A DNA stretch of 33,460 nt from a virus (Duplodnaviria; Heunggongvirae; Uroviricota; Caudoviricetes). The DNA lies in the IMG/VR virus record IMGVR_UViG_3300027852_000034, positions 1 to 33,460 of that record, one strand, 5' to 3'. A model generated the notes under the pieces. The model searched no databases. It worked only from the letters and a program-made list of their open reading frames with translations, and was not told the origin of the DNA. Positions 7,357-16,468 of the stretch are shown one piece after another; the stretch's first letter is position 1; the number at the start of each line of letters is the position of its first letter. The position numbers and the translations under genes were made by a program.

Positions 7357-8013
7357 TTACTCCTTTTCACCTTCTAATAATTTCGGCATATCTTTAGTCA
7401 TATCTGTTAAGGCTTGCAATCCTGCTTCTCTTATACGGTGCTCTATATAAGCCTCTACTTCAGATTTTGCAGATAGAACAGTTTTGGACAGTTGCTTAGC
7501 AAACTGTTCGTATACAAAAGGCATGTCACTTTTTAAAGAAACCTCTATACGATTGACCATATTTTGAAGTTCTCTTAATTCAGATTTTTTAGCTCTAGGG
7601 GCTTCAGCTACCTCTTTAGCTTTTATAACCAGATTAGAAAGACGTTCAACAATCTCTTGTATATCCTCTCTGAATTCCTTTTTAAAAGTTTCTACCTTAG
7701 GTTCAAAATCATCAGATTCAATTACACCTTCTTCCCTAGTATATTTAAGAGTGCAAGGTACAGGAGAAGTATTAGGAGAGGATACAAATTCTGCGAATTG
7801 AACTGGTGACAAATAAACCTCTACGATGTGTCTCTTTTCATGTACCCAATCACTAGCTAAATCTCTTGCAAAAATAGCAGAGCTAATTTTTAAACTGATA
7901 AAATTGTTATGTCGAACATCGGAACCAAATAACGTTATGTTTCCTCCAGTGCATCTACTCCAACTAATTACACCATAAGAAGGATGCTCTTTTTCATTGT
8001 CAAAGAGTGCCAT
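7357..8013 (-). CDS. phage hypothetical protein, 218 aa
   Basis: HPSYGVISWSR..LFGSD..RDLASDW..QFAEFVSS..PCTL; I recall this pattern from other phage hypotheticals, function unknown. Confidence 0.75.
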   Translation of the reverse strand: MALFDNEKEHPSYGVISWSRCTGGNITLFGSDVRHNNFISLKISSAIFARDLASDWVHEKRHIVEVYLSPVQFAEFVSSPNTSPVPCTLKYTREEGVIESDDFEPKVETFKKEFREDIQEIVERLSNLVIKAKEVAEAPRAKKSELRELQNMVNRIEVSLKSDMPFVYEQFAKQLSKTVLSAKSEVEAYIEHRIREAGLQALTDMTKDMPKLLEGEKE

Positions 8014-8128
8014 ATTAAATTCCTTTATATATAAGGGTAGTAAATATCATGCCAATAATAAATCCTAAAATAAAAAAAAGGAATTTATCTGTTTGAAACA
8101 TTTAGATTACCTATTATGTAGTTATTAA

Positions 8129-9163
8129 TTATACCAGTGAATCTATTAATTTATAAATTGCTTTAGGAGGCATCTCACCCGGATCTTCATATTCTTCAGG
8201 TACTTGCCCTGGTATAACTTCATTTGTAACAAAGGCCAATGCAGAAGCCATTTTTAAAGCAGTATCTACTTCCGCAGCATCAAGCAATAGAACAACCTTT
8301 TTAAAATTCATAGATAATTCTTCAATTAAGATTGCTTGAGGTTCACGCAAATTTTTACTGAACAAACATGTAGCACGGGCTCCTATCTCTTGACCATAAA
8401 AATCTACTTTTAAAGCATCGAAAGGTCCTTCTGTAACGAATAAGATCTCACCGTTTGCGTCCATTAGATTGTCAAAGTTATAGATGGTATCTTTAATTGA
8501 CATCAAAGCACCGTGCCTTGGACTAAAGGTGTTATAACGTAATTTAGACTCTTTTTGTATAGATCTACCTGTCCATGTAACTAATCTAAAATCTTGATGT
8601 ATAGGTAAGATAATTCTATTTTCCCATTTACCTGATAAGCAGCACCGCACATCATATTGATCTATGAAATCATAAATATGGTTTTTATGAAAACCTCTTT
8701 CATAGATCAAGTAATTAATAAAACGTTTCGATGAACTATATTTACCTACAGGTGCAAATTCTTCAGGTAAATCTAGACCTTTTGCATTCTGTTCTGCTTC
8801 CAGGTATTCTTGTTCTGTAGAAAAGATTTTAGAGGGATCTTTCGCTAGAGCATCAAATGATCCTTCTTGGATCCAATCTACCTGCTCACCTAAAATCTGA
8901 CAAGCCTCTGCATAAGATATACGCAGGAGCTTCATTAAAAGTCTGTGCAACTTTCTACCGTGATGGCGTCTATTACGCCAACACGACCAAAACCCAGTAT
9001 TGGGATCTATTCCTAAGTGATGGCTAGGATCAGGATTACCTTCACTATTACAGAATGGGCAAGATAGATTTAACTCACCAGCCTTAACATTAACGCCATT
9101 CGTAATGTAATGGATACCACGTTTAGACAGGAAGTTCTCTACATTGAATTTGAAAACTGGCAC
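8129..9163 (-). CDS. DNA primase (DnaG/T4 gp61-like, Zn-binding plus TOPRIM)
   Basis: CPFC..HHLG..CW Zn domain, RIILPI..WTGR, TOPRIM FVTEGPFDAL, LLLD, EDPGE. Confidence 0.88.
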   Translation of the reverse strand: MPVFKFNVENFLSKRGIHYITNGVNVKAGELNLSCPFCNSEGNPDPSHHLGIDPNTGFWSCWRNRRHHGRKLHRLLMKLLRISYAEACQILGEQVDWIQEGSFDALAKDPSKIFSTEQEYLEAEQNAKGLDLPEEFAPVGKYSSSKRFINYLIYERGFHKNHIYDFIDQYDVRCCLSGKWENRIILPIHQDFRLVTWTGRSIQKESKLRYNTFSPRHGALMSIKDTIYNFDNLMDANGEILFVTEGPFDALKVDFYGQEIGARATCLFSKNLREPQAILIEELSMNFKKVVLLLDAAEVDTALKMASALAFVTNEVIPGQVPEEYEDPGEMPPKAIYKLIDSLV

Positions 9164-9168
9164 TATAA

Positions 9169-9360
9169 TTAATCACCGATATCTACTATCCATACTCCGC
9201 ACGGACATACCCGCCCATGTTTTTCCCAAGTCCAATTTTCATGATTACAAGGTACATCTTCTGACTCGCCCTCTTTTGGTTTGTGGCCTGATCGCTTCCA
9301 TTTCTTATAGTCTGGAGAAGCCTGATATTGTTCAAACGTGTCATACCCTCCATATAGCAT
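9169..9360 (-). CDS. small hypothetical protein
   Basis: GAGGAGG RBS, ATG 9360. Confidence 0.65.
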   Translation of the reverse strand: MLYGGYDTFEQYQASPDYKKWKRSGHKPKEGESEDVPCNHENWTWEKHGRVCPCGVWIVDIGD

Positions 9361-9384
9361 CCTATACCTCCTCAAATATTTAAG

Positions 9385-9532
9385 AGTAAAGGACTATCCG
9401 GTAATGGCTGTTCTAAGACTGTTTTAGGTACGGATATTAAGTCTTATATCTGACAACCAGATACTTACAACACACCGGTTTGATGGACCTTGCCATACGG
9501 AAACGTTACTACCGCCCGAATAGTCCTTTACT
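9385..9532. ncRNA. candidate structured RNA (148 nt) closed by a 17-bp terminal stem
   Basis: AGTAAAGGACTAT/ATAGTCCTTTACT perfect 13-bp inverted repeat extending to 17 bp on the minus strand; internal stems TATCTG/CAGATA, TAAGACT/AGTCTTA, ATGG/CCAT; fills the intergenic gap. Confidence 0.6.
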
Positions 9533-9533
9533 A

Positions 9534-9752
9534 TTAAAACCTAATCGTTTCACCTTGCTTGTTTTTCCAAAGATCACACACCGCATTAGGATTAACACCG
9601 AATTCATTAATGCTGCACCTCATCTGATAAGTTGTTCCTTTTGCTTTAATTCCATGTTCATAAAATATACAACTTTTACACACTGGCGGCTGATCTTCAT
9701 AATTAACGGCAACACGTTTTTTCTTTACTTGGTGTTTTTTCTGCCTGTTCAC
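9534..9752 (-). CDS. small 4-Cys protein (CxxCxFY..C..V..CxxW)
   Basis: CKSCIFY...RCSINEFGVNPNAVCDLW. Confidence 0.7.
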   Translation of the reverse strand: MNRQKKHQVKKKRVAVNYEDQPPVCKSCIFYEHGIKAKGTTYQMRCSINEFGVNPNAVCDLWKNKQGETIRF

Positions 9753-10012
9753 AATCTTTCATCAGGTGTATTTGGATCAATAATACTAATCCGATCTAAT
9801 AATATATTAAACATGTTTTTATGATGACCTAACTTACCTCCGGTAATCTCATCAATCAATGCATCTCCACATGAATACGTATTCTGTAAATGCCGAACCT
9901 TGTAATAATGCTTTAAAGCTCTACGCCTTAAAAAGAATGTACGAAACCATGTACCTAATGACATTACAGCCCTTCCTACATTTTTAAAGCCCTCAACGCT
10001 ACGATTCATCAT
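9749..10012 (-). CDS. hypothetical protein
   Basis: ORF overlapping its neighbours (ATGA overlap at 9749-9752). Confidence 0.65.
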   Translation of the reverse strand: MMNRSVEGFKNVGRAVMSLGTWFRTFFLRRRALKHYYKVRHLQNTYSCGDALIDEITGGKLGHHKNMFNILLDRISIIDPNTPDERL

Positions 10013-10244
10013 TAGACCTAGAAATAAAATCTATTACGAAACCATGTACTCGCAAAGCTTTCATTATCTTAGCCCATTGATCAACTGGTGAATCTTCACG
10101 ATAATCAATATAAGTATCACCAATAATCTCAGCCATCAAATCACCTGCTAGTTGATCCTGACTACTGGTTATAAAATCTGTGAAATGCTTATCCCCTTTT
10201 AGTGGAGATACTTTTCCATGCATCCTAACATTTAAATTAGACAC
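9999..10244 (-). CDS. hypothetical protein
   Basis: ORF with AGGAG RBS. Confidence 0.65.
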   Translation of the reverse strand: MSNLNVRMHGKVSPLKGDKHFTDFITSSQDQLAGDLMAEIIGDTYIDYREDSPVDQWAKIMKALRVHGFVIDFISRSNDES

Positions 10245-10264
10245 TAAATCATCTCCTAATAGCC

Positions 10265-10534
10265 TTACTTAATCGTATCCATAATATCTATCTCACATTT
10301 GATAATATTCACAGTACTAGGGTGAGCAAAAAGATTACCCGAAGCAATATAAAACGGACGAATTTGTTTATAACCAAAACGTTTGGCCCACTTCTTTTGC
10401 ACTCTCTTAAAATAAGAATCACTCATCCAGGACTTCCGTTTTAATTTTTTGACTGGTACATCTTGAAATTCATCCAATACAGGACTACTTATAATCTTCA
10501 ACCCTAAAAATGTAGGATGATTAGATTCAAACAT
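10265..10534 (-). CDS. hypothetical protein
   Basis: Coupled ORF. Confidence 0.65.
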   Translation of the reverse strand: MFESNHPTFLGLKIISSPVLDEFQDVPVKKLKRKSWMSDSYFKRVQKKWAKRFGYKQIRPFYIASGNLFAHPSTVNIIKCEIDIMDTIK

Positions 10535-10839
10535 CAGCTACCAAACCCCGAAGGCATCCATTTTTCGTTGAAACGATCAAGTGCCCTTCTAGTCTCATCC
10601 CCGTTTACAAGTGTTACACCAACACCGATACCATGATAATGCTCCATCACCTGATCTAACACATCCATTAATTGTAGTTCTTTATTGTGTTCAATTCTCA
10701 ATGTCAGATTTAATGTTACTTTCTCAACCATGCTTTCATCCTCAGCAATTAAATGATCTTCATTCCAAAACTTACCACATTCTATACAATCACCGTAATG
10801 ATCTTCATTTTCACAACCGCATTCGAAACACTTCCACAT
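10534..10839 (-). CDS. hypothetical protein with N-terminal Zn ribbon (WKCFECG..CIECG)
   Basis: Two CxxC pairs; GAGG RBS. Confidence 0.7.
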   Translation of the reverse strand: MWKCFECGCENEDHYGDCIECGKFWNEDHLIAEDESMVEKVTLNLTLRIEHNKELQLMDVLDQVMEHYHGIGVGVTLVNGDETRRALDRFNEKWMPSGFGS

Positions 10840-10860
10840 TAACTAATACCTCGAATGTAA

Positions 10861-11040
10861 TTAAGCGTTTTGCTGTGCAATAGGTTCAATAGGTTCCGGA
10901 CCTCCAACTACCTCAGCCCTAAAAATAGGATTCCCTGAATATTGATACCCAGAAAACAAAGCTTGCCAATCATACGCTTCTACAATCTCTACTGTAGCTA
11001 TGCCACTTGCACCAACTCTGTAAATCTTAAATTTAGTCAT
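10861..11040 (-). CDS. hypothetical protein
   Basis: ATG 11040 after GGGG RBS. Confidence 0.6.
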   Translation of the reverse strand: MTKFKIYRVGASGIATVEIVEAYDWQALFSGYQYSGNPIFRAEVVGGPEPIEPIAQQNA

Positions 11041-11050
11041 TATAATGCCC

Positions 11051-11227
11051 CTAAAAATCACTAAAACAATGTAACGCAGTTGTTAACCCAGCAAGAAATA
11101 TTTCTAACATCAACCATCCTGGACCGAAGTTTTCATAATCTAAATCTTTTAATATAACTAAAATATCTGCACCTATAGCACCACCGAACACAAGCATTGT
11201 TACCCCATAAAGTATTTTAGAATGCAT
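11051..11227 (-). CDS. small two-TM membrane protein
   Basis: Two hydrophobic segments; GGAG RBS before ATG 11227. Confidence 0.65.
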   Translation of the reverse strand: MHSKILYGVTMLVFGGAIGADILVILKDLDYENFGPGWLMLEIFLAGLTTALHCFSDF

Positions 11228-11246
11228 TTTAATCTCCAATATTAGT

Positions 11247-11340
11247 GGTGGGCCTTTCACCCACCTGCGTAGTTTATTTCTTTGAAGGTGTTAACTGTTC
11301 ACCTGCATCCGGTAGTTACGGGATGGCAGACTACCGGCAG
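11247..11340 (-). other. intergenic multi-hairpin RNA element
   Basis: Stems CCGGTAGT/ACTACCGG (flanked by CTGC/GCAG), AGGTG/CACCT and GGTGGG-TGAAAGG-CCCACC in a ~135-nt gap. Confidence 0.45.
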
Positions 11341-11365
11341 CTTCTGCTCTTTCACCCGATGCTCG

Positions 11366-11554
11366 TTACCCGCCTATCTCTTCCCATGCTATAGTAGCCT
11401 CTCTGAGTGCATGAGCATTTTCCTCAGATGGAAAAATAGTCCAGGCTTTTGCAGCATCAGCAAGCACCAATAAAATATCCTCTGGCTTGTCGTTCTTATC
11501 AATTTCAGTAACACCACAAGCTTGGTCTACTAAGGTGTCAATTGGACTTGCCAT
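11366..11554 (-). CDS. hypothetical protein
   Basis: GGAGG RBS, ATG 11554. Confidence 0.7.
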   Translation of the reverse strand: MASPIDTLVDQACGVTEIDKNDKPEDILLVLADAAKAWTIFPSEENAHALREATIAWEEIGG

Positions 11555-11570
11555 ACCAACCTCCAATAAT

Positions 11571-11733
11571 TTCAGTGAAAAGGGCTCTTGTCGTTTGGTA
11601 CTGTTATGCTAGTTTTCTAAGGGGTTTCCGCCCTATAACAGCCCGTCTCACAAGAACAGGACTTACTTTAAAGGTGCCTGCATCGGCGCGTGAAGCACCT
11701 CCGATACCACTTGGCTAAGCCCTTTTCACTGAA
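11571..11733 (-). ncRNA. candidate structured ncRNA (163 nt), possibly raiA-motif-like
   Basis: Perfect 16-bp terminal stem TTCAGTGAAAAGGGCT/AGCCCTTTTCACTGAA; internal helices UGGUA/UACCA, AGGUGCUU/AGGCACCU, CUGUUAU/AUAACAG and a GAAA-capped stem; G-U pairs favour the minus strand. Confidence 0.65.
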
Positions 11734-11742
11734 TACTGTTCA

Positions 11743-11961
11743 TTAAATATCAGTTACCGAAATAGTACATAGGCTGTTTCGACACGGCATATTATCACCG
11801 GCTATCCACTGCGTACTTTTTCCAGTAACCGGTTCCTCCTGAGCTAACGCTATCGGATAAAATTCTTCATTGTCAGTGTCAAAACCCCTAGTAGCAATTC
11901 CTTTCCAATTACCAGATCTTTGATGCTTTACATTTAAAAGCTGACCTTTCTTTATTTGCAT
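11743..11961 (-). CDS. hypothetical protein
   Basis: ORF with GGGA RBS. Confidence 0.7.
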   Translation of the reverse strand: MQIKKGQLLNVKHQRSGNWKGIATRGFDTDNEEFYPIALAQEEPVTGKSTQWIAGDNMPCRNSLCTISVTDI

Positions 11962-11974
11962 TGTGTAATCCCCA

Positions 11975-12139
11975 TTATGCAGCTCCTAAAAATCTCCAAA
12001 ATTTTCTTTCTAACGGCACTTTTGTTTTAGGTAAATCAATAAACTTTCTAGCTCTACCCGAAGGGTCTCTTACTGCTATAAAACAAATCCTATGTTTTAA
12101 CTCAGGAGTATGGTACTCATGATAAGTAATCTTATACAT
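11975..12139 (-). CDS. hypothetical protein
   Basis: ATG 12139 avoids overlap with the upstream gene. Confidence 0.55.
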   Translation of the reverse strand: MYKITYHEYHTPELKHRICFIAVRDPSGRARKFIDLPKTKVPLERKFWRFLGAA

Positions 12140-12146
12140 AGAATTC

Positions 12147-12371
12147 TCAATCAGTATACCAATCAAGTAGCTCACTCAATGCCATGCCTCCAGCAATATC
12201 TGCACCAAGACGTAGAGCGGCCTTCTCTCGTAATTCGCCCTCAGTCAAGCCGTCTATTACCTCAGCACCATCCCTAATTGGCTGAGTGACTATATCAACA
12301 GTTGTTCCAATTGGATCATCTACAAAATCAGAAACCATGTCAGTTGCTTTATCAAATAGCTTGTTAAACAT
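12147..12371 (-). CDS. hypothetical acidic protein
   Basis: GGAG RBS, ATG 12371. Confidence 0.7.
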   Translation of the reverse strand: MFNKLFDKATDMVSDFVDDPIGTTVDIVTQPIRDGAEVIDGLTEGELREKAALRLGADIAGGMALSELLDWYTD

Positions 12372-12375
12372 ACCT

Positions 12376-12567
12376 TTACTCCTTTTTCTTTCGATAAATC
12401 TTACCATTAAAACAAAAAGTAGGTACTGCGGCTTCTATCTTCATTCCACAATCAATGCACTGATATTTATTCTTAACAAGTTGCATAGTCATCAAATCAA
12501 TAAAATCGGTCCATCTATGTTGTGCTGGATCAATAACCATTGATTCACGTCCACTTACACTAATCAT
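12376..12567 (-). CDS. hypothetical protein (CIDC)
   Basis: TAATG-coupled ORF. Confidence 0.6.
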   Translation of the reverse strand: MISVSGRESMVIDPAQHRWTDFIDLMTMQLVKNKYQCIDCGMKIEAAVPTFCFNGKIYRKKKE

Positions 12568-12884
12568 TAGGAACCTACAGTTTCATTTGTTCCTTCCCAA
12601 ACAAATTCATCAAGTGGAAAATGTGTGCAACACCCACAACAAAATGTCCCATTATAAAATTTTGGATCACGAGCATATGTTTCAGCAATTGATGATGCCA
12701 TAATTGTCACTATTCCACATTTTTTATGAACATATTTTTCACGATATGGTCGAACATAACCCTTTGCTCGCTCCTCTGGACATAAGACAACATAACCTTT
12801 CTGTTGACCATTCTCTTTAATATCACGATGATCATTAGTAACCGCATCACCAGTAGTTAAACATATTTTTGGTTTATCACTCAT
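12567..12884 (-). CDS. Cys/His-rich phage hypothetical protein
   Basis: YVVLCPEERAKGYVRP..H..CG..AETYARDPKFY..FCCGC..H; probable Zn-binding. Confidence 0.75.
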   Translation of the reverse strand: MSDKPKICLTTGDAVTNDHRDIKENGQQKGYVVLCPEERAKGYVRPYREKYVHKKCGIVTIMASSIAETYARDPKFYNGTFCCGCCTHFPLDEFVWEGTNETVGS

Positions 12885-13096
12885 TGCTTCTTATTAACCT
12901 CGAAATGGAACACCTTATTTTCATCTATACGGAAAGAAAATATATCACCACCTGTATCATCAAGTTCCATTACTGGTATCGACACCTTCCTTCCCAGTCT
13001 TTTAAGAAACACGATCAATAGCTGATCTTTTAAATCGTCCAGCACCGCAGCATGTTCAGGATTCACATCCCTAATAGCGTCTATACCTCTACCCAT
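12881..13096 (-). CDS. hypothetical protein
   Basis: GAGG RBS, ATGA overlap. Confidence 0.7.
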   Translation of the reverse strand: MGRGIDAIRDVNPEHAAVLDDLKDQLLIVFLKRLGRKVSIPVMELDDTGGDIFSFRIDENKVFHFEVNKKQ

Positions 13097-13110
13097 ATCT
13101 TTATCCTCAA

Positions 13111-13389
13111 TTAGCTATATCCAGCATATTTGTATCCTGGATGATCAACTTGTATGCTGGAAACTGCCTCATTAAATGCCTGCAAATAATCATCTGCTTC
13201 TATTTCAAAATAAATCTCAGCAACAACTCTTACCTCAATCTTTCGTGATTTTGGATCAATCGACGGTTCTTCTCTACAACAGTAACACCTACACCCATCA
13301 AAATGCTTTGTCCCACATATTCTACAAGGCCACTTTCCATGTTTTTCACAAATTACTGCACCCCGAAAAGTATCTGTTCCTTTACCCAT
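13111..13389 (-). CDS. Cys-rich hypothetical protein
   Basis: CEKH..CRIC..CRCYCC. Confidence 0.65.
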   Translation of the reverse strand: MGKGTDTFRGAVICEKHGKWPCRICGTKHFDGCRCYCCREEPSIDPKSRKIEVRVVAEIYFEIEADDYLQAFNEAVSSIQVDHPGYKYAGYS

Positions 13390-13570
13390 CTCTGCTTACC
13401 TCTTTCAGTTCTTGCAGGTCAGCCATTAATTTAGGATTATTAGCTATACACTCGGCTGCAAATCGGTAACGAGTCCAACGCATAGGAGCATCATAATCAA
13501 TGATCTGACATAGCGTATATGCAGCACGATCTATTGTGCTGGCAGTTTCTTTATCGTAAGGGTAATACAT
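13382..13570 (-). CDS. hypothetical protein
   Basis: Coupled ORF. Confidence 0.65.
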   Translation of the reverse strand: MYYPYDKETASTIDRAAYTLCQIIDYDAPMRWTRYRFAAECIANNPKLMADLQELKEVSRDG

Positions 13571-13572
13571 AT

Positions 13573-13779
13573 CTATCTATATCTCTTAGGCAGGGATGAA
13601 TTTGCGTCACTTGTACATTCTGGACACATGTCCTTATAATCTATATAACCGGTTGCACCACAATTATGTATTTCTATAACAGTCCACCCTGGTGGTAATT
13701 TGTAAGAAAAAGCCTGCTGAATTTCTCGTTTTGGGCAATAGTCACATTTAGTTTCCCATGTTTTAAGTTCACGTTTCAT
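13573..13779 (-). CDS. small Zn-binding protein (CDYC..CPEC)
   Basis: Start re-set to ATG 13779 (TAATG coupling). Confidence 0.65.
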   Translation of the reverse strand: MKRELKTWETKCDYCPKREIQQAFSYKLPPGWTVIEIHNCGATGYIDYKDMCPECTSDANSSLPKRYR

Positions 13780-13925
13780 TATTGAAAACCATCCATGCAA
13801 CCGTGACGGCGAGGGTCCTCGAAGAAAGGCGACAACAAAATCATCACCAGAACTACCACTCCTAAAATAAATATAATAAAAGGTACAAATTGCGCTATTA
13901 AAATGTACTTTAACCATTTAGGCAT
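13779..13925 (-). CDS. 48-aa single-pass membrane protein
   Basis: MPKWLKYILIAQFVPFIIFILGVVVLVMILLSPFF...; GAGG RBS; not in the ORF track. Confidence 0.6.
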   Translation of the reverse strand: MPKWLKYILIAQFVPFIIFILGVVVLVMILLSPFFEDPRRHGCMDGFQ

Positions 13926-13940
13926 AATTAATAAACCTCG

Positions 13941-14261
13941 TTATATTTGCACTGTATCACCAATGGTAAACTTATCAGCAGCACCTTTGCTACTAAACAT
14001 TTGCTCGGTTTCACTCTCTCTACCATAAGCAGAGACCTTAGCTTTCACGAACCATTTACCGAATTTATATTCAGGAGCACTCAAAATTTCAACCACTTTT
14101 GCGTCTACTAAGTTCACATCAATCTCCTTTTTCACCCATATTGTGTAACGCTTGCAAACGGGACATTTTATCTGTCTATGTGTTCTAGTCATTTTATCTG
14201 CCCAAGTATGCCACTCTAAATAACCTTTAGGACAGGGAGTATGTTTGCATTGCTTACTCAT
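13941..14261 (-). CDS. hypothetical protein (CKH..CP..CPVC)
   Basis: ATGA-coupled ORF. Confidence 0.65.
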   Translation of the reverse strand: MSKQCKHTPCPKGYLEWHTWADKMTRTHRQIKCPVCKRYTIWVKKEIDVNLVDAKVVEILSAPEYKFGKWFVKAKVSAYGRESETEQMFSSKGAADKFTIGDTVQI

Positions 14262-14491
14262 TCTGGGTCCTCAAGTCGCATTGCAGGGATAGGACCAATG
14301 TATCCATAGATATGCGCTCTAAACTTCTCAGCACTTCCTGGATAGCTCCATGTTCTATCAACAAACATAAGAAGTTTTTTATCCGCAAAAGGCAACCCTG
14401 GAATATCTGAATTAATATAAGCAACATACAACCCGTTCTCAATAGGGTCTCCGTCATGGATAACAAAATAATCAGATTTTACCTCTATCAT
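14258..14491 (-). CDS. hypothetical protein
   Basis: Coupled ORF. Confidence 0.65.
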   Translation of the reverse strand: MIEVKSDYFVIHDGDPIENGLYVAYINSDIPGLPFADKKLLMFVDRTWSYPGSAEKFRAHIYGYIGPIPAMRLEDPE

Positions 14492-14493
14492 AA

Positions 14494-14730
14494 TTAATTA
14501 CGTTTATTGTAACTTGCCCAATCACAGGACATCCCTGTACCAGCTGTACTGAAATGGTCATGTATAGCACACGTCAACCCATTGGAAAGAGTTACTAATA
14601 CTATAGATTCATGTGCATCCTTTTCTATTCGTTGTTTATGTGACCACTTCCTAGCTTCTGGTTCGTATTTTGAATTATCACAGGCAACAATAAATAAACA
14701 CATAATGGTTACATAAAGAAGTATTTTCAT
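14494..14730 (-). CDS. putative lipoprotein
   Basis: MK plus hydrophobic stretch plus IVAC lipobox. Confidence 0.65.
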   Translation of the reverse strand: MKILLYVTIMCLFIVACDNSKYEPEARKWSHKQRIEKDAHESIVLVTLSNGLTCAIHDHFSTAGTGMSCDWASYNKRN

Positions 14731-15005
14731 AAGGAATCCCTAAATAACCAATGAGGAGAATCATCAATCCACACAGATGGATAATATCCCTGTCCGTGTA
14801 CAAACGAATGCTTAGCTTTTCGGCCAGTGAATATAATTTCCTCAACTTTTTCCGCTAAAGCTTCAATGACCTCAGCACCTTCATGTTCATAACGCATAGT
14901 GGCACATATGATGCTATGCCCCCTAAGTTTTGCAGCGTCGATTACTAGATCCCAAAACTCAGGATCTAGCGTATAAGTTTCATCAAAATCCAATACTAAC
15001 AACAT
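14727..15005 (-). CDS. minimal HAD-superfamily hydrolase-like protein
   Basis: LVLDFDETYT (DxD motif I), T at motif II, K, WIDD motif IV. Confidence 0.7.
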   Translation of the reverse strand: MLLVLDFDETYTLDPEFWDLVIDAAKLRGHSIICATMRYEHEGAEVIEALAEKVEEIIFTGRKAKHSFVHGQGYYPSVWIDDSPHWLFRDSL

Positions 15006-15008
15006 CTC

Positions 15009-15404
15009 TCAGGCTGCTCTTTGAAAGTCTTTAAGCTTCTCACATACTTGAGCATCTAAGTCACTCCACTCTTCCTCTGTTAGATTTATCTGATGCCTTT
15101 GATCTGCTGCCATTTCTTGCAATCTAGTCTGAGAAAATAATCCAAATTGTGTTGCCCTCATTATCATCAACATTTTACGAACATCTTTATTGCACTTATC
15201 GTTATACAATACATAGATGTCAGAACCATAGATTTCCCAAGTATCGAGAATTAATATTGCACCCATGCCTCCCATAACCGCTTGAGGATCTATAGAATTG
15301 TGGTGTTTTAAAATTTCTGTCATAGCTACAACTGCACCAGGAATGCCTTCTGCCATTTTGATTAGAGCATCCATTCCTGAATCTGTTAATTCTATTCTAC
15401 TCAT
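15009..15404 (-). CDS. phage hypothetical protein, 131 aa
   Basis: KMAEGIPGA..LILDTWEIYGSDIYVLYNDKC; ATGA overlap. Confidence 0.75.
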   Translation of the reverse strand: MSRIELTDSGMDALIKMAEGIPGAVVAMTEILKHHNSIDPQAVMGGMGAILILDTWEIYGSDIYVLYNDKCNKDVRKMLMIMRATQFGLFSQTRLQEMAADQRHQINLTEEEWSDLDAQVCEKLKDFQRAA

Positions 15405-15706
15405 TGTGATTCTCCTTCTTTCAATAAAAGAAAAGCCTCATCTAAAATCCTTTTGATATGCGGTCTCCTACCCTTCTTAACATTATGTCTTGACATGGCA
15501 GTTTCTTTTATATTCTCTAATCGCCATTCAGGAGTAACTCCTAAATCTTTTAAAACCTCCTCCATTGGATCAAGTGGTTTACCAAGCCGTAGTCTTTCAA
15601 TTTCACCAGAAAGCGCACCAAACTGTGCTTTAGTTAAAGTCACTGTATGACCATCTTGTTTTTGACCTTCCAGTAAAGTGTCAATTAAAAAATCTGAATC
15701 TGTCAT
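15401..15706 (-). CDS. hypothetical protein
   Basis: GAGG RBS. Confidence 0.65.
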   Translation of the reverse strand: MTDSDFLIDTLLEGQKQDGHTVTLTKAQFGALSGEIERLRLGKPLDPMEEVLKDLGVTPEWRLENIKETAMSRHNVKKGRRPHIKRILDEAFLLLKEGESQ

Positions 15707-15732
15707 TTCTCATTACCTCAGTTAATATTTTC

Positions 15733-15801
15733 TCACAACCAATACCAAAATGCGGCTAGTACTCCACATAGTAGCAAGCTCCAAATAGTTTCAATTTCCA
15801 T
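15733..15801 (-). CDS. 22-aa hydrophobic micro-peptide
   Basis: GAGGTAAA-ATG; MEIETIWSLLLCGVLAAFWYWL fills the gap. Confidence 0.45.
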   Translation of the reverse strand: MEIETIWSLLLCGVLAAFWYWL

Positions 15802-15814
15802 TTTACCTCAATTA

Positions 15815-16075
15815 TTAAATACCGCTCCACTTATGGGAACAGTGCCTACATTTCCACTCTGCATCATGTACCCAATCAACCAACTGCACTTGCTTGGTTC
15901 CGCACTTTGGGCACGGTTTTGCCTTCTTACAGAATGCCTCCCGCTTCTCAGTAAGGGCGATCGCAGAATTTAACAAAGCTTTAAAATCAGATGACCTTCG
16001 AGGCGCAATTTTTGAACACGACGATTCATGCGTAAATAGTAATCCACATTCATCACACCACCCAAAATACATCAC
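15815..16075 (-). CDS. Zn-ribbon protein (CDEC..CPKC..CRHC)
   Basis: Three CxxC motifs. Confidence 0.65.
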   Translation of the reverse strand: MMYFGWCDECGLLFTHESSCSKIAPRRSSDFKALLNSAIALTEKREAFCKKAKPCPKCGTKQVQLVDWVHDAEWKCRHCSHKWSGI

Positions 16076-16083
16076 TGCTTACC

Positions 16084-16257
16084 TCAATCCTCGCTAATTT
16101 GACGAGAGATATCCTTAACCTCTTTACCTGTGTCAATCAATATTTGCTTAACACCTCCCGCCTGGTTAATTTTATTAACAACAACCAGTCCTAATACAGC
16201 ACCACCTAATAGAATCACAACAATGATACTGATTATTAATTTTTCAATTTTTGTCAT
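16084..16257 (-). CDS. membrane-anchored small protein
   Basis: Start re-set to ATG 16257; N-terminal TM helix. Confidence 0.65.
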   Translation of the reverse strand: MTKIEKLIISIIVVILLGGAVLGLVVVNKINQAGGVKQILIDTGKEVKDISRQISED

Positions 16258-16261
16258 CCTT

Positions 16262-16468
16262 TCAATCCTCTTTCTTTGTAATATGATTAACGATAACCAA
16301 TATTTCACGAACACTCTTTAAATCCTTTTCATATTGTTCACAGTGTTCTGTGTAATGCTCAGTTACAGATAGCAAAGTGTCCTCTTCCGAAGTCACGTAA
16401 AGATGTTCTGTGATAATTTCTTTACTGTCACTAGCACAATAGTCTGTTTTTACCTCAAATACTTTCAT
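16262..16468 (-). CDS. hypothetical protein
   Basis: ATGA-coupled ORF. Confidence 0.65.
   Translation of the reverse strand: MKVFEVKTDYCASDSKEIITEHLYVTSEEDTLLSVTEHYTEHCEQYEKDLKSVREILVIVNHITKKED

Follow-up and report, generated by a model that had tools for sequence, protein, structure and literature searches.

A probable inverted-repeat-bounded intergenic insert with a predicted stem in the operon transcript of a single phage lineage

The 148-nt non-coding element at positions 9385-9532 is best seen as a new case, confined to a single lineage, of a known sort of sequence: an intergenic insert that is bounded by inverted repeats and is predicted to form a stem in the operon transcript of a phage. 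The window analyzed here, that is, the whole stretch of 33,460 nucleotides, makes up the opening 33.5 kb of an IMG/VR virus record of 97.5 kb, which is estimated to be 74% complete. Table 1 lists the features discussed below.

Gene string around the element

The genes surrounding the element are all encoded on the minus strand, and nearly the entire 173-nt gap between the p72 and p63 genes is occupied by it. The initial annotation had placed the element 1 nt past a stop codon and ahead of a strong GAGGAGG ribosome-binding site (RBS), and this position was borne out by the p72 stop codon and the p63 RBS (Table 1). The same annotation had described the operon as otherwise gap-free, which was overstated: further gaps occur in the same gene string at 8014-8128, 11261-11365, and 11567-11742, and the remaining junctions are overlapping or about 20 nt long. 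A consensus scan reported zero terminator-like sites in 8000-13000 and zero promoter-like sites inside the element. Because the genes on either side lie on the same strand and the scan reported neither a terminator nor a promoter, the element would be transcribed within a minus-strand polycistronic mRNA and read through.

Table 1. Coordinates of the element, its parts, its neighboring genes, and the second stem-closed gap (positions in the window).
Feature	Position	Strand	Remarks
Non-coding element, 148 nt, inverted-repeat-bounded	9385-9532	-	GC 0.42; one copy in the 97-kb record
Closing helix, 5' arm, mRNA strand	9516-9532	-	AGUAAAGGACUAUUCGG
Closing helix, 3' arm, mRNA strand	9385-9401	-	CCGGAUAGUCCUUUACU; ends 11 nt before the p63 RBS
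Interior loop, 114 nt, small hairpins	9402-9515	-	GC 0.41
Flanking TTAA, mRNA-upstream side	9534-9537		Includes the p72 stop UAA (9536-9534)
Flanking TTAA, mRNA-downstream side	9380-9383		Partner of 9534-9537
p72 (upstream gene, 72 aa, Cys-rich)	9534-9752	-	Stop UAA 9536-9534
p63 (downstream gene, 63 aa)	9169-9360	-	ATG 9360; RBS GAGGAGG 9373-9367
Primase gene	8129-9163	-	Directly after p63, abutting
Second stem-closed element, 163 nt, perfect 16-bp closing stem	11571-11733	-	Between stop codon and RBS; GC 0.49

Both flanking proteins lack near relatives in our searches, and p72 is an ORFan, with no homologue among 5.8 billion proteins. The C-terminal motif of p63 (CNHE...GRVCPCG) is kept across a small family, of which a profile search returned distant members only. 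This motif is about 30 aa long (CNHE...GRVCPCG..W..D.GD) and was found in about 60 small proteins (P0123-P0182) of a library of 1.8 billion representatives, with 10 matched stretches in P0124 (1463 aa); it matched no Pfam or PHROG family. Relatives of p87 and p101 were absent from IMG/VR. The minus strand of the gap that separates the primase gene from the gene for a 218-aa protein can form a perfect 11-bp long-range stem at 8016-8087 (UAAAUUCCUUU / AAAGGAAUUUA), the 3' arm of which overlaps an AAGGA ribosome-binding site just ahead of the ATG at 8013. Taken alone, an 11-bp repeat of this kind is within chance (12 expected, 22 seen).

Closing stem and interior

The closing stem is real and exceeds what chance would produce. 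The ends of the element are complementary over 13 perfect base pairs (AGTAAAGGACTAT/ATAGTCCTTTACT), and on the minus strand, which corresponds to the mRNA, these are followed by a U.G pair and three further base pairs to give a 17-bp helix. Pairing of the ends over 17 bp, as claimed in the initial annotation, therefore holds on the minus strand, with one U.G included. On the plus strand, the U.G becomes a C.A mismatch, and the arms match at 16 of 17 positions as DNA. The strand had been called ambiguous; we do not retain this view, since all of the flanking genes are minus-strand genes and the stem reaches 17 bp on that strand only. Beyond one mismatch outside the helix, UUAA pairs with UUAA, which extends the stem to a rod of 22 positions, and folding of the sense strand predicted 17 bp, a 1x1 mismatch, and 4 bp. 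With its flanks included, the outer inverted repeat is 23 nt long and 91% complementary. The predicted rod approximates the roughly 20 bp (about two turns) of near-continuous dsRNA that would be expected for an RNase III processing site.

When the 173-nt gap was shuffled 20,000 times, no perfect stem joining the two ends reached 13 bp, and the probability of at least 10 bp was 5.5e-4. Genome-wide, we found seven perfect inverted repeats of at least 13 bp with a spacing of 30-400 nt, against 1.07 expected, and only two of the seven, 9385-9532 and 11571-11733, fill intergenic gaps. As for the other five, three were checked and proved to be inside ORFs, a fourth overlaps a gene in part, and the fifth falls within the primase coordinates. 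Perfect inverted repeats of 17 and 14 bp, with spans of 201 and 74 nt, were seen at G000 73406-73606 and 74602-74675; the ORFs that contain them (292 and 127 aa) belong to the structural-gene half of the phage.

The interior of the element is not detectably structured, and the excess stability comes entirely from the closing stem. Folding of the whole element gave z scores of -4.1 (minus strand) and -3.15 (plus strand), whereas the interior without the closing stem (101-122 nt) scored +0.1 and -0.9, respectively, against dinucleotide shuffles. The inner hairpins and the plus-strand ACG-GAAA-CGT tetraloop that the initial annotation had pointed out are literally present in the sequence. However, because neither strand of the interior outdoes its dinucleotide shuffles in folding (z between +0.1 and -0.9), we regard these hairpins and the tetraloop, as well as the AGGU/ACCU pseudoknot that had been proposed, as features at chance level. 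The GC content of the element is about 1 SD above the genome mean (0.369 ± 0.044). Its sole ORF on the sense strand, read directly from the sequence, has 19 codons and no RBS. A CGGUAGU helix common to the element and the 11261-11365 gap was considered and rejected, as by our own estimate a 7-mer would be shared about once by chance.

We also considered a switch in which the stem masks the RBS. The predicted probability that GAGGAGG is unpaired changed little with or without the 5' arm, and this idea was dropped because the predicted accessibility of the RBS was not clearly dependent on the stem.

The second stem-closed gap (11571-11733) lies in the same gene string and has the same placement, with a stop codon followed by the stem, about 10 nt, and an RBS. 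Its interior was likewise judged to be at chance level, and it belongs to no family and is absent from relatives. Conversely, its sequence is unrelated to that of the element (about 45% identity in a forced alignment), its GC content is higher (0.49 vs 0.42), and it is not flanked by TA/TTAA. Copy searches with this gap among phages and plasmids and by end-pair scans gave unrelated matches only. An apparent similarity between the two closing stems (an AGT-AAAGG-CT core) was discarded, as AGTRAAAGG with one mismatch was seen 30 times against 20 expected, which is not significant. For 150-nt stretches of the phage, the gaps at 11261-11365 and 11571-11733 rank in the top 1-2% by GC content (0.51 and 0.49; mean, 0.37), and they may be foreign or structured.

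Copies, relatives, and signs of insertion

The element has no second copy in the 97-kb record. It is present in two other public assemblies, which are 100% identical over everything compared and hence represent the same phage; because these two copies are identical, covariation has no variation to work on. Neither GenBank phages nor PLSDB plasmids contained a match by blastn. In addition, IMG/VR, 185,579 GTDB species genomes, and JGI metagenomes were scanned with exact end-pair patterns of 13+13, 10+10, and 11+11 bases. These scans returned unrelated matches only, namely a repeat in a Nitrospirae MAG, one conserved low-GC locus, and perfect palindromes, with no similarity in the interior. The initial annotation had named conserved or covarying homologs as the test of a structured RNA family, and none were found; on present data, that reading fails the test. 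The repeat in the Nitrospirae MAG nDJH13bin3 is a genuine dispersed family of seven copies (L009, L012, L013, L015, L018, L020, and L021), about 134-144 bp long, with the ends AGTAAAGGAC...GTCCTTTACT and conserved flanks; its interior is unrelated to that of the phage element.

The nearest relative was the contig L005, the only close one among the primase relatives fetched, with a primase 85% identical to that of the present phage. In L005, p63 has a homologue whose upstream junction is gap-free; p72, the element, and stem-closed gaps are all missing. A synteny map against L005 indicated that a stretch of small orphan genes, about 7 kb long (roughly 9.4-16.4 kb), is lineage-specific, and the element lies at the downstream edge of this stretch, where it meets the conserved p63-primase block. 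The region at about 9400-16400 is a hypervariable accessory region. It separates the conserved queD-queE-HTH block from p63-primase, and its counterpart in L005 is about 2.5 kb long and holds other genes.

With respect to insertion, the sequence TTAA is found 1 nt outside each perfect arm (Table 1), which places TA at 9381-9382 and 9535-9536. The statement in the initial annotation that no target-site duplication is visible was thus not right, although the repeated TTAA is indistinguishable from a stem extension: it is palindromic and fits a target-site duplication and a 4-bp extension of the stem equally well. When the element and one TTAA are removed in silico, an ordinary junction results (UAA-7 nt-GAGGAGG-6 nt-AUG). 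This predicted empty-site sequence was absent from IMG/VR. The stretch was located in one DNA sequencing run, probably its source, and in no RNA run; the contigs of that DNA run included a single identical one and neither a variant nor a joint.

Prokaryotic MITEs are 50-800 bp long, with inverted ends of at least 10-15 bp and duplications of 2-10 bp, and they are rare in phages (PMC11602168). The element has terminal inverted repeats in this range (13 bp perfect), and it is small (148 bp) and non-coding. Related copies or other evidence of mobility were found neither in the record nor in phages, plasmids, IMG/VR, GTDB, or JGI data. No transposase of the two families DDE_3 and DDE_Tnp_1 was detected in the 97-kb phage record. 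The element therefore appears MITE-like in form, and form is what suggests mobility. A match to a known MITE, which the initial annotation had named as a possible refutation, was likewise not obtained: the form is that of a MITE, but no known or multi-copy family includes it. MITE-type elements are reported in only about 0.01% of viral sequences, and less often in aquatic ones (PMC11602168). Those described in viral contigs by Nadal-Molero et al. (2024, PMC11602168) resemble the element in their formal description, in a possible duplication of 2-4 bp, and in an intergenic location; they were called from repeated copies or from at least 95% identity to cellular MITEs, however, and the element has neither.

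Explanations and known systems

Our leading explanation, to which we give about an even chance, is a lineage-specific, MITE-like insert that is bounded by inverted repeats and co-transcribed with its neighbors, and of which the only active part is the dsRNA rod, a likely target of RNase III or barrier to exonucleases. The insert would have entered at TA/TTAA, as a miniature inverted-repeat element would, and the pairing of its two ends may have allowed it to be tolerated. Through the helix, the rod would bring the p72 stop and the p63 RBS and start codon within about 12-25 nt of each other. This spacing is similar to that of uninterrupted junctions, which may explain why the insert was tolerated. 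The rod could then act as a substrate for host RNase III, a gene for this enzyme being absent from the phage record, or it could block 3'-5' exonucleases. Either a cut or a block would split the transcript or differentially stabilize its p72-side and primase-side halves. In this reading, the interior (114 nt) is a passive loop and not the core of a ribozyme, riboswitch, or sRNA. We infer that a cis-acting mRNA stem cuttable by RNase III is the most plausible function. This keeps one part of the initial annotation, which had offered three options (an sRNA excised by RNase III, a ribozyme, and a cis regulator); the ribozyme is unsupported.

Several observations favor the insert with an active rod. 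The 17-bp stem depends on a U.G that is present only in the coding-sense strand, the junction in L005 is gap-free, and the element sits at the edge of the lineage-specific region. Additionally, the unrelated gap at 11571-11733 is also closed by a stem and has the same stop-stem-RBS layout. On the other hand, no second copy or empty site was found, the palindromic TTAA may be a stem extension instead of a duplication, and the accessibility of the RBS is predicted to be barely altered by the stem. Moreover, marine viral contigs very seldom contain MITEs, yet two unrelated candidates would occur here, 2 kb apart.

Comparable elements are known in bacteria and phages. Correia elements are about 100-160 bp long and insert at TA. 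The element is like the Correia/NEMIS elements of Neisseria in belonging to the size class of about 100-160 bp, in being non-coding with terminal inverted repeats, and in lying at TA beside genes, and its ends would likewise form a long hairpin in a co-transcribed mRNA. The inverted ends of Correia elements are transcribed and cut by RNase III (PMC10969869). Correia/NEMIS elements differ in that their ends measure 26-27 bp and over 100 of them occur per genome, with further copies in Neisseria phages, whereas the element has ends of 13-17 bp, is single-copy, and has no sequence in common with any family found; in its case, RNase III cleavage is only predicted.

REP stems act as exonuclease barriers. 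The ERIC/IRU and REP/BIME sequences of Proteobacteria are imperfect palindromes that lie in operons, are transcribed, and form stems, and in these respects the element would be like them. ERIC repeats alter the stability of flanking mRNA via RNase E exposure (PMC10969869). Unlike the element, these sequences are multi-copy, conserved chromosomal families; a copy of the element was absent from 185,579 species genomes. A direct resemblance to ERIC was considered and dropped, as the ERIC-like string is internal in ERIC, and so was a resemblance to integron attC sites, because the R''/R' boxes (AAC...GTT) are absent.

Early and late mRNAs of phage T7 carry RNase III processing sites between genes, and precursors of 16S and 23S rRNA are closed by long-range flanking stems. 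The predicted rod is similar to the T7 sites in being a double-stranded stalk of roughly 20 bp between cistrons of a polycistronic phage transcript, and rRNA stalks are similar to it in pairing sequences more than 100 nt apart and enclosing a part, which in their case is excised. Conversely, each T7 site is a compact hairpin (about 50-60 nt) that has a characteristic internal loop and is shared by related phages, whereas the 114 nt inside the stem of the element are unstructured and the nearest relative lacks this stem.

If the insert with an active rod is the true reading, it adds a further small inverted-repeat insert that is tolerated in a tightly packed phage operon, with its ends folding back. 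It would also carry a lesson for annotation, in that a good folding score alone should not make such gaps RNA genes, and would provide a small data point on the formation of mosaic boundaries in large marine phages. Its importance would be greater only if the stem were a programmed processing site common to several gaps, or a Rep-binding site, of both of which there are only hints.

The foremost alternative, which we consider possible although rather unlikely, is a neutral relic. Here, the arms would be what remains of the termini of a dead mini-element, or of a joint formed by recombination between gene cassettes, tolerated without any role between a stop codon and an RBS. This accommodates nearly all of the data: copies are 100% identical and restricted to a single lineage, the nearest relative lacks the element, the location is a boundary of lineage-specific and conserved blocks, the interior looks random, and the RBS is neither clearly masked nor unmasked by the stem. 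What speaks against it is the state of the arms, which are still perfect over 13 bp, and the sole deviation in 17 positions is a transition that preserves pairing in the sense-strand RNA. Furthermore, a second, unrelated gap has a better stem of 16 bp in the same position, which hints at selection for pairing or at a very recent arrival.

A stand-alone structured ncRNA with a functional multi-helix interior, such as an excised sRNA, a self-cleaving ribozyme, or a riboswitch-like cis regulator, is improbable. The overall folding z of -4.1 and the small hairpins agree with such an RNA, and the phage does carry small RNAs elsewhere (tRNAs and eleven Y RNAs). However, the interior z is about 0, and the GC content of 0.42 is just about 1 SD over the genome mean, the Y RNAs of the phage having 0.35-0.48. 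The Rfam scan that the initial annotation had recommended matched no family, with riboswitches, small ribozymes, sRNAs, HEARO, and tmRNA among those covered: there was no match inside 9385-9532 at E<=10 and none in the whole window at the gathering score. ARAGORN found no tRNA. Given an interior at chance level, the lack of an Rfam match at E<=10 or of any homologue, and a nearest relative without the element, the proposal of a novel structured RNA or ribozyme is unsupported.

We regard it as similarly improbable that the two stem-closed gaps are an undescribed phage device. Such a device might consist of cassette-boundary elements with long-range stems as RNase III substrates, the cut liberating RNAs of about 115-130 nt and uncoupling adjacent cassettes; alternatively, the arm of the element at 9385-9532 might double as an outlying site for the plasmid-type Rep_3 initiator and link origin control to the primase operon.

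A site acting at the DNA level is doubtful in a like degree. The phage has a plasmid-type origin, with a Rep_3 gene at G000 54668-55636 and 3.6 tandem 22-bp iterons at 55788-55867 (L035 2789-2868), and the left end of the element on the plus strand (9386-9406) could be an outlying, iteron-like site for the Rep_3 initiator beside the primase gene, with a role in the control or priming of replication. Outside the array, this arm is the best match to the iterons (17/21 positions), and it contains the 8-mers CATTACCG and TCCTTTAC exactly and with the same 5-nt spacing (CATTACCG-N5-TCCTTTAC). Nevertheless, about 0.85 matches of 17/21 quality are expected by chance in the genome, and this one was found post hoc. 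In addition, GTAAAGGA resembles an RBS and is a common word (about 20 copies), the order of the halves is that of the junction between iteron units and not of one unit, and the other arm has the common half only.

A chance palindrome in ordinary spacer DNA is very improbable: a sequence of 97 kb should contain about one perfect 13-bp inverted repeat at 30-400 nt spacing, but the arms lie exactly at the ends of the gap and extend to 17 (22) positions, which was unmatched in 20,000 shuffles, and a second case lies 2 kb away.

Least probable of all is a diverged Y-RNA-like ligand of the Ro60 protein encoded by the phage, although Ro60 and eleven Y RNAs occur in the same phage and the element shares the layout of Y RNAs (about 70-140 nt, with an end-paired stem), its ends being paired and its interior variable. 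The eleven Y-RNA-like genes have the invariant motifs CCGAA...GGUUAUC...ACUUG and a GC content of 0.35-0.48. We built a covariance model (R1) from these eleven RNAs and scanned 8000-12500 with filters off. The genuine copies scored 49-89 bits, and 8000-12500 gave only noise (at most 7 bits); the sole match touching the element (9381-9446, plus strand) scored 3.5 bits at E 8.5. The Ro60-binding motifs CCGAA...GGUUAUC...ACUUG are absent from the element, and there was no Rfam Y_RNA or YrlA match. The element is not a Y RNA. The Y-RNA-like genes themselves are located at L036 2534-6256 (G000 about 92.0-95.8 kb), upstream of the Ro60 ORF, where they are interspersed with at least four tRNA genes. 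Rfam recognizes one of the eleven (YrlA, 40 bits, below the gathering score), and several have tRNA-like interiors.
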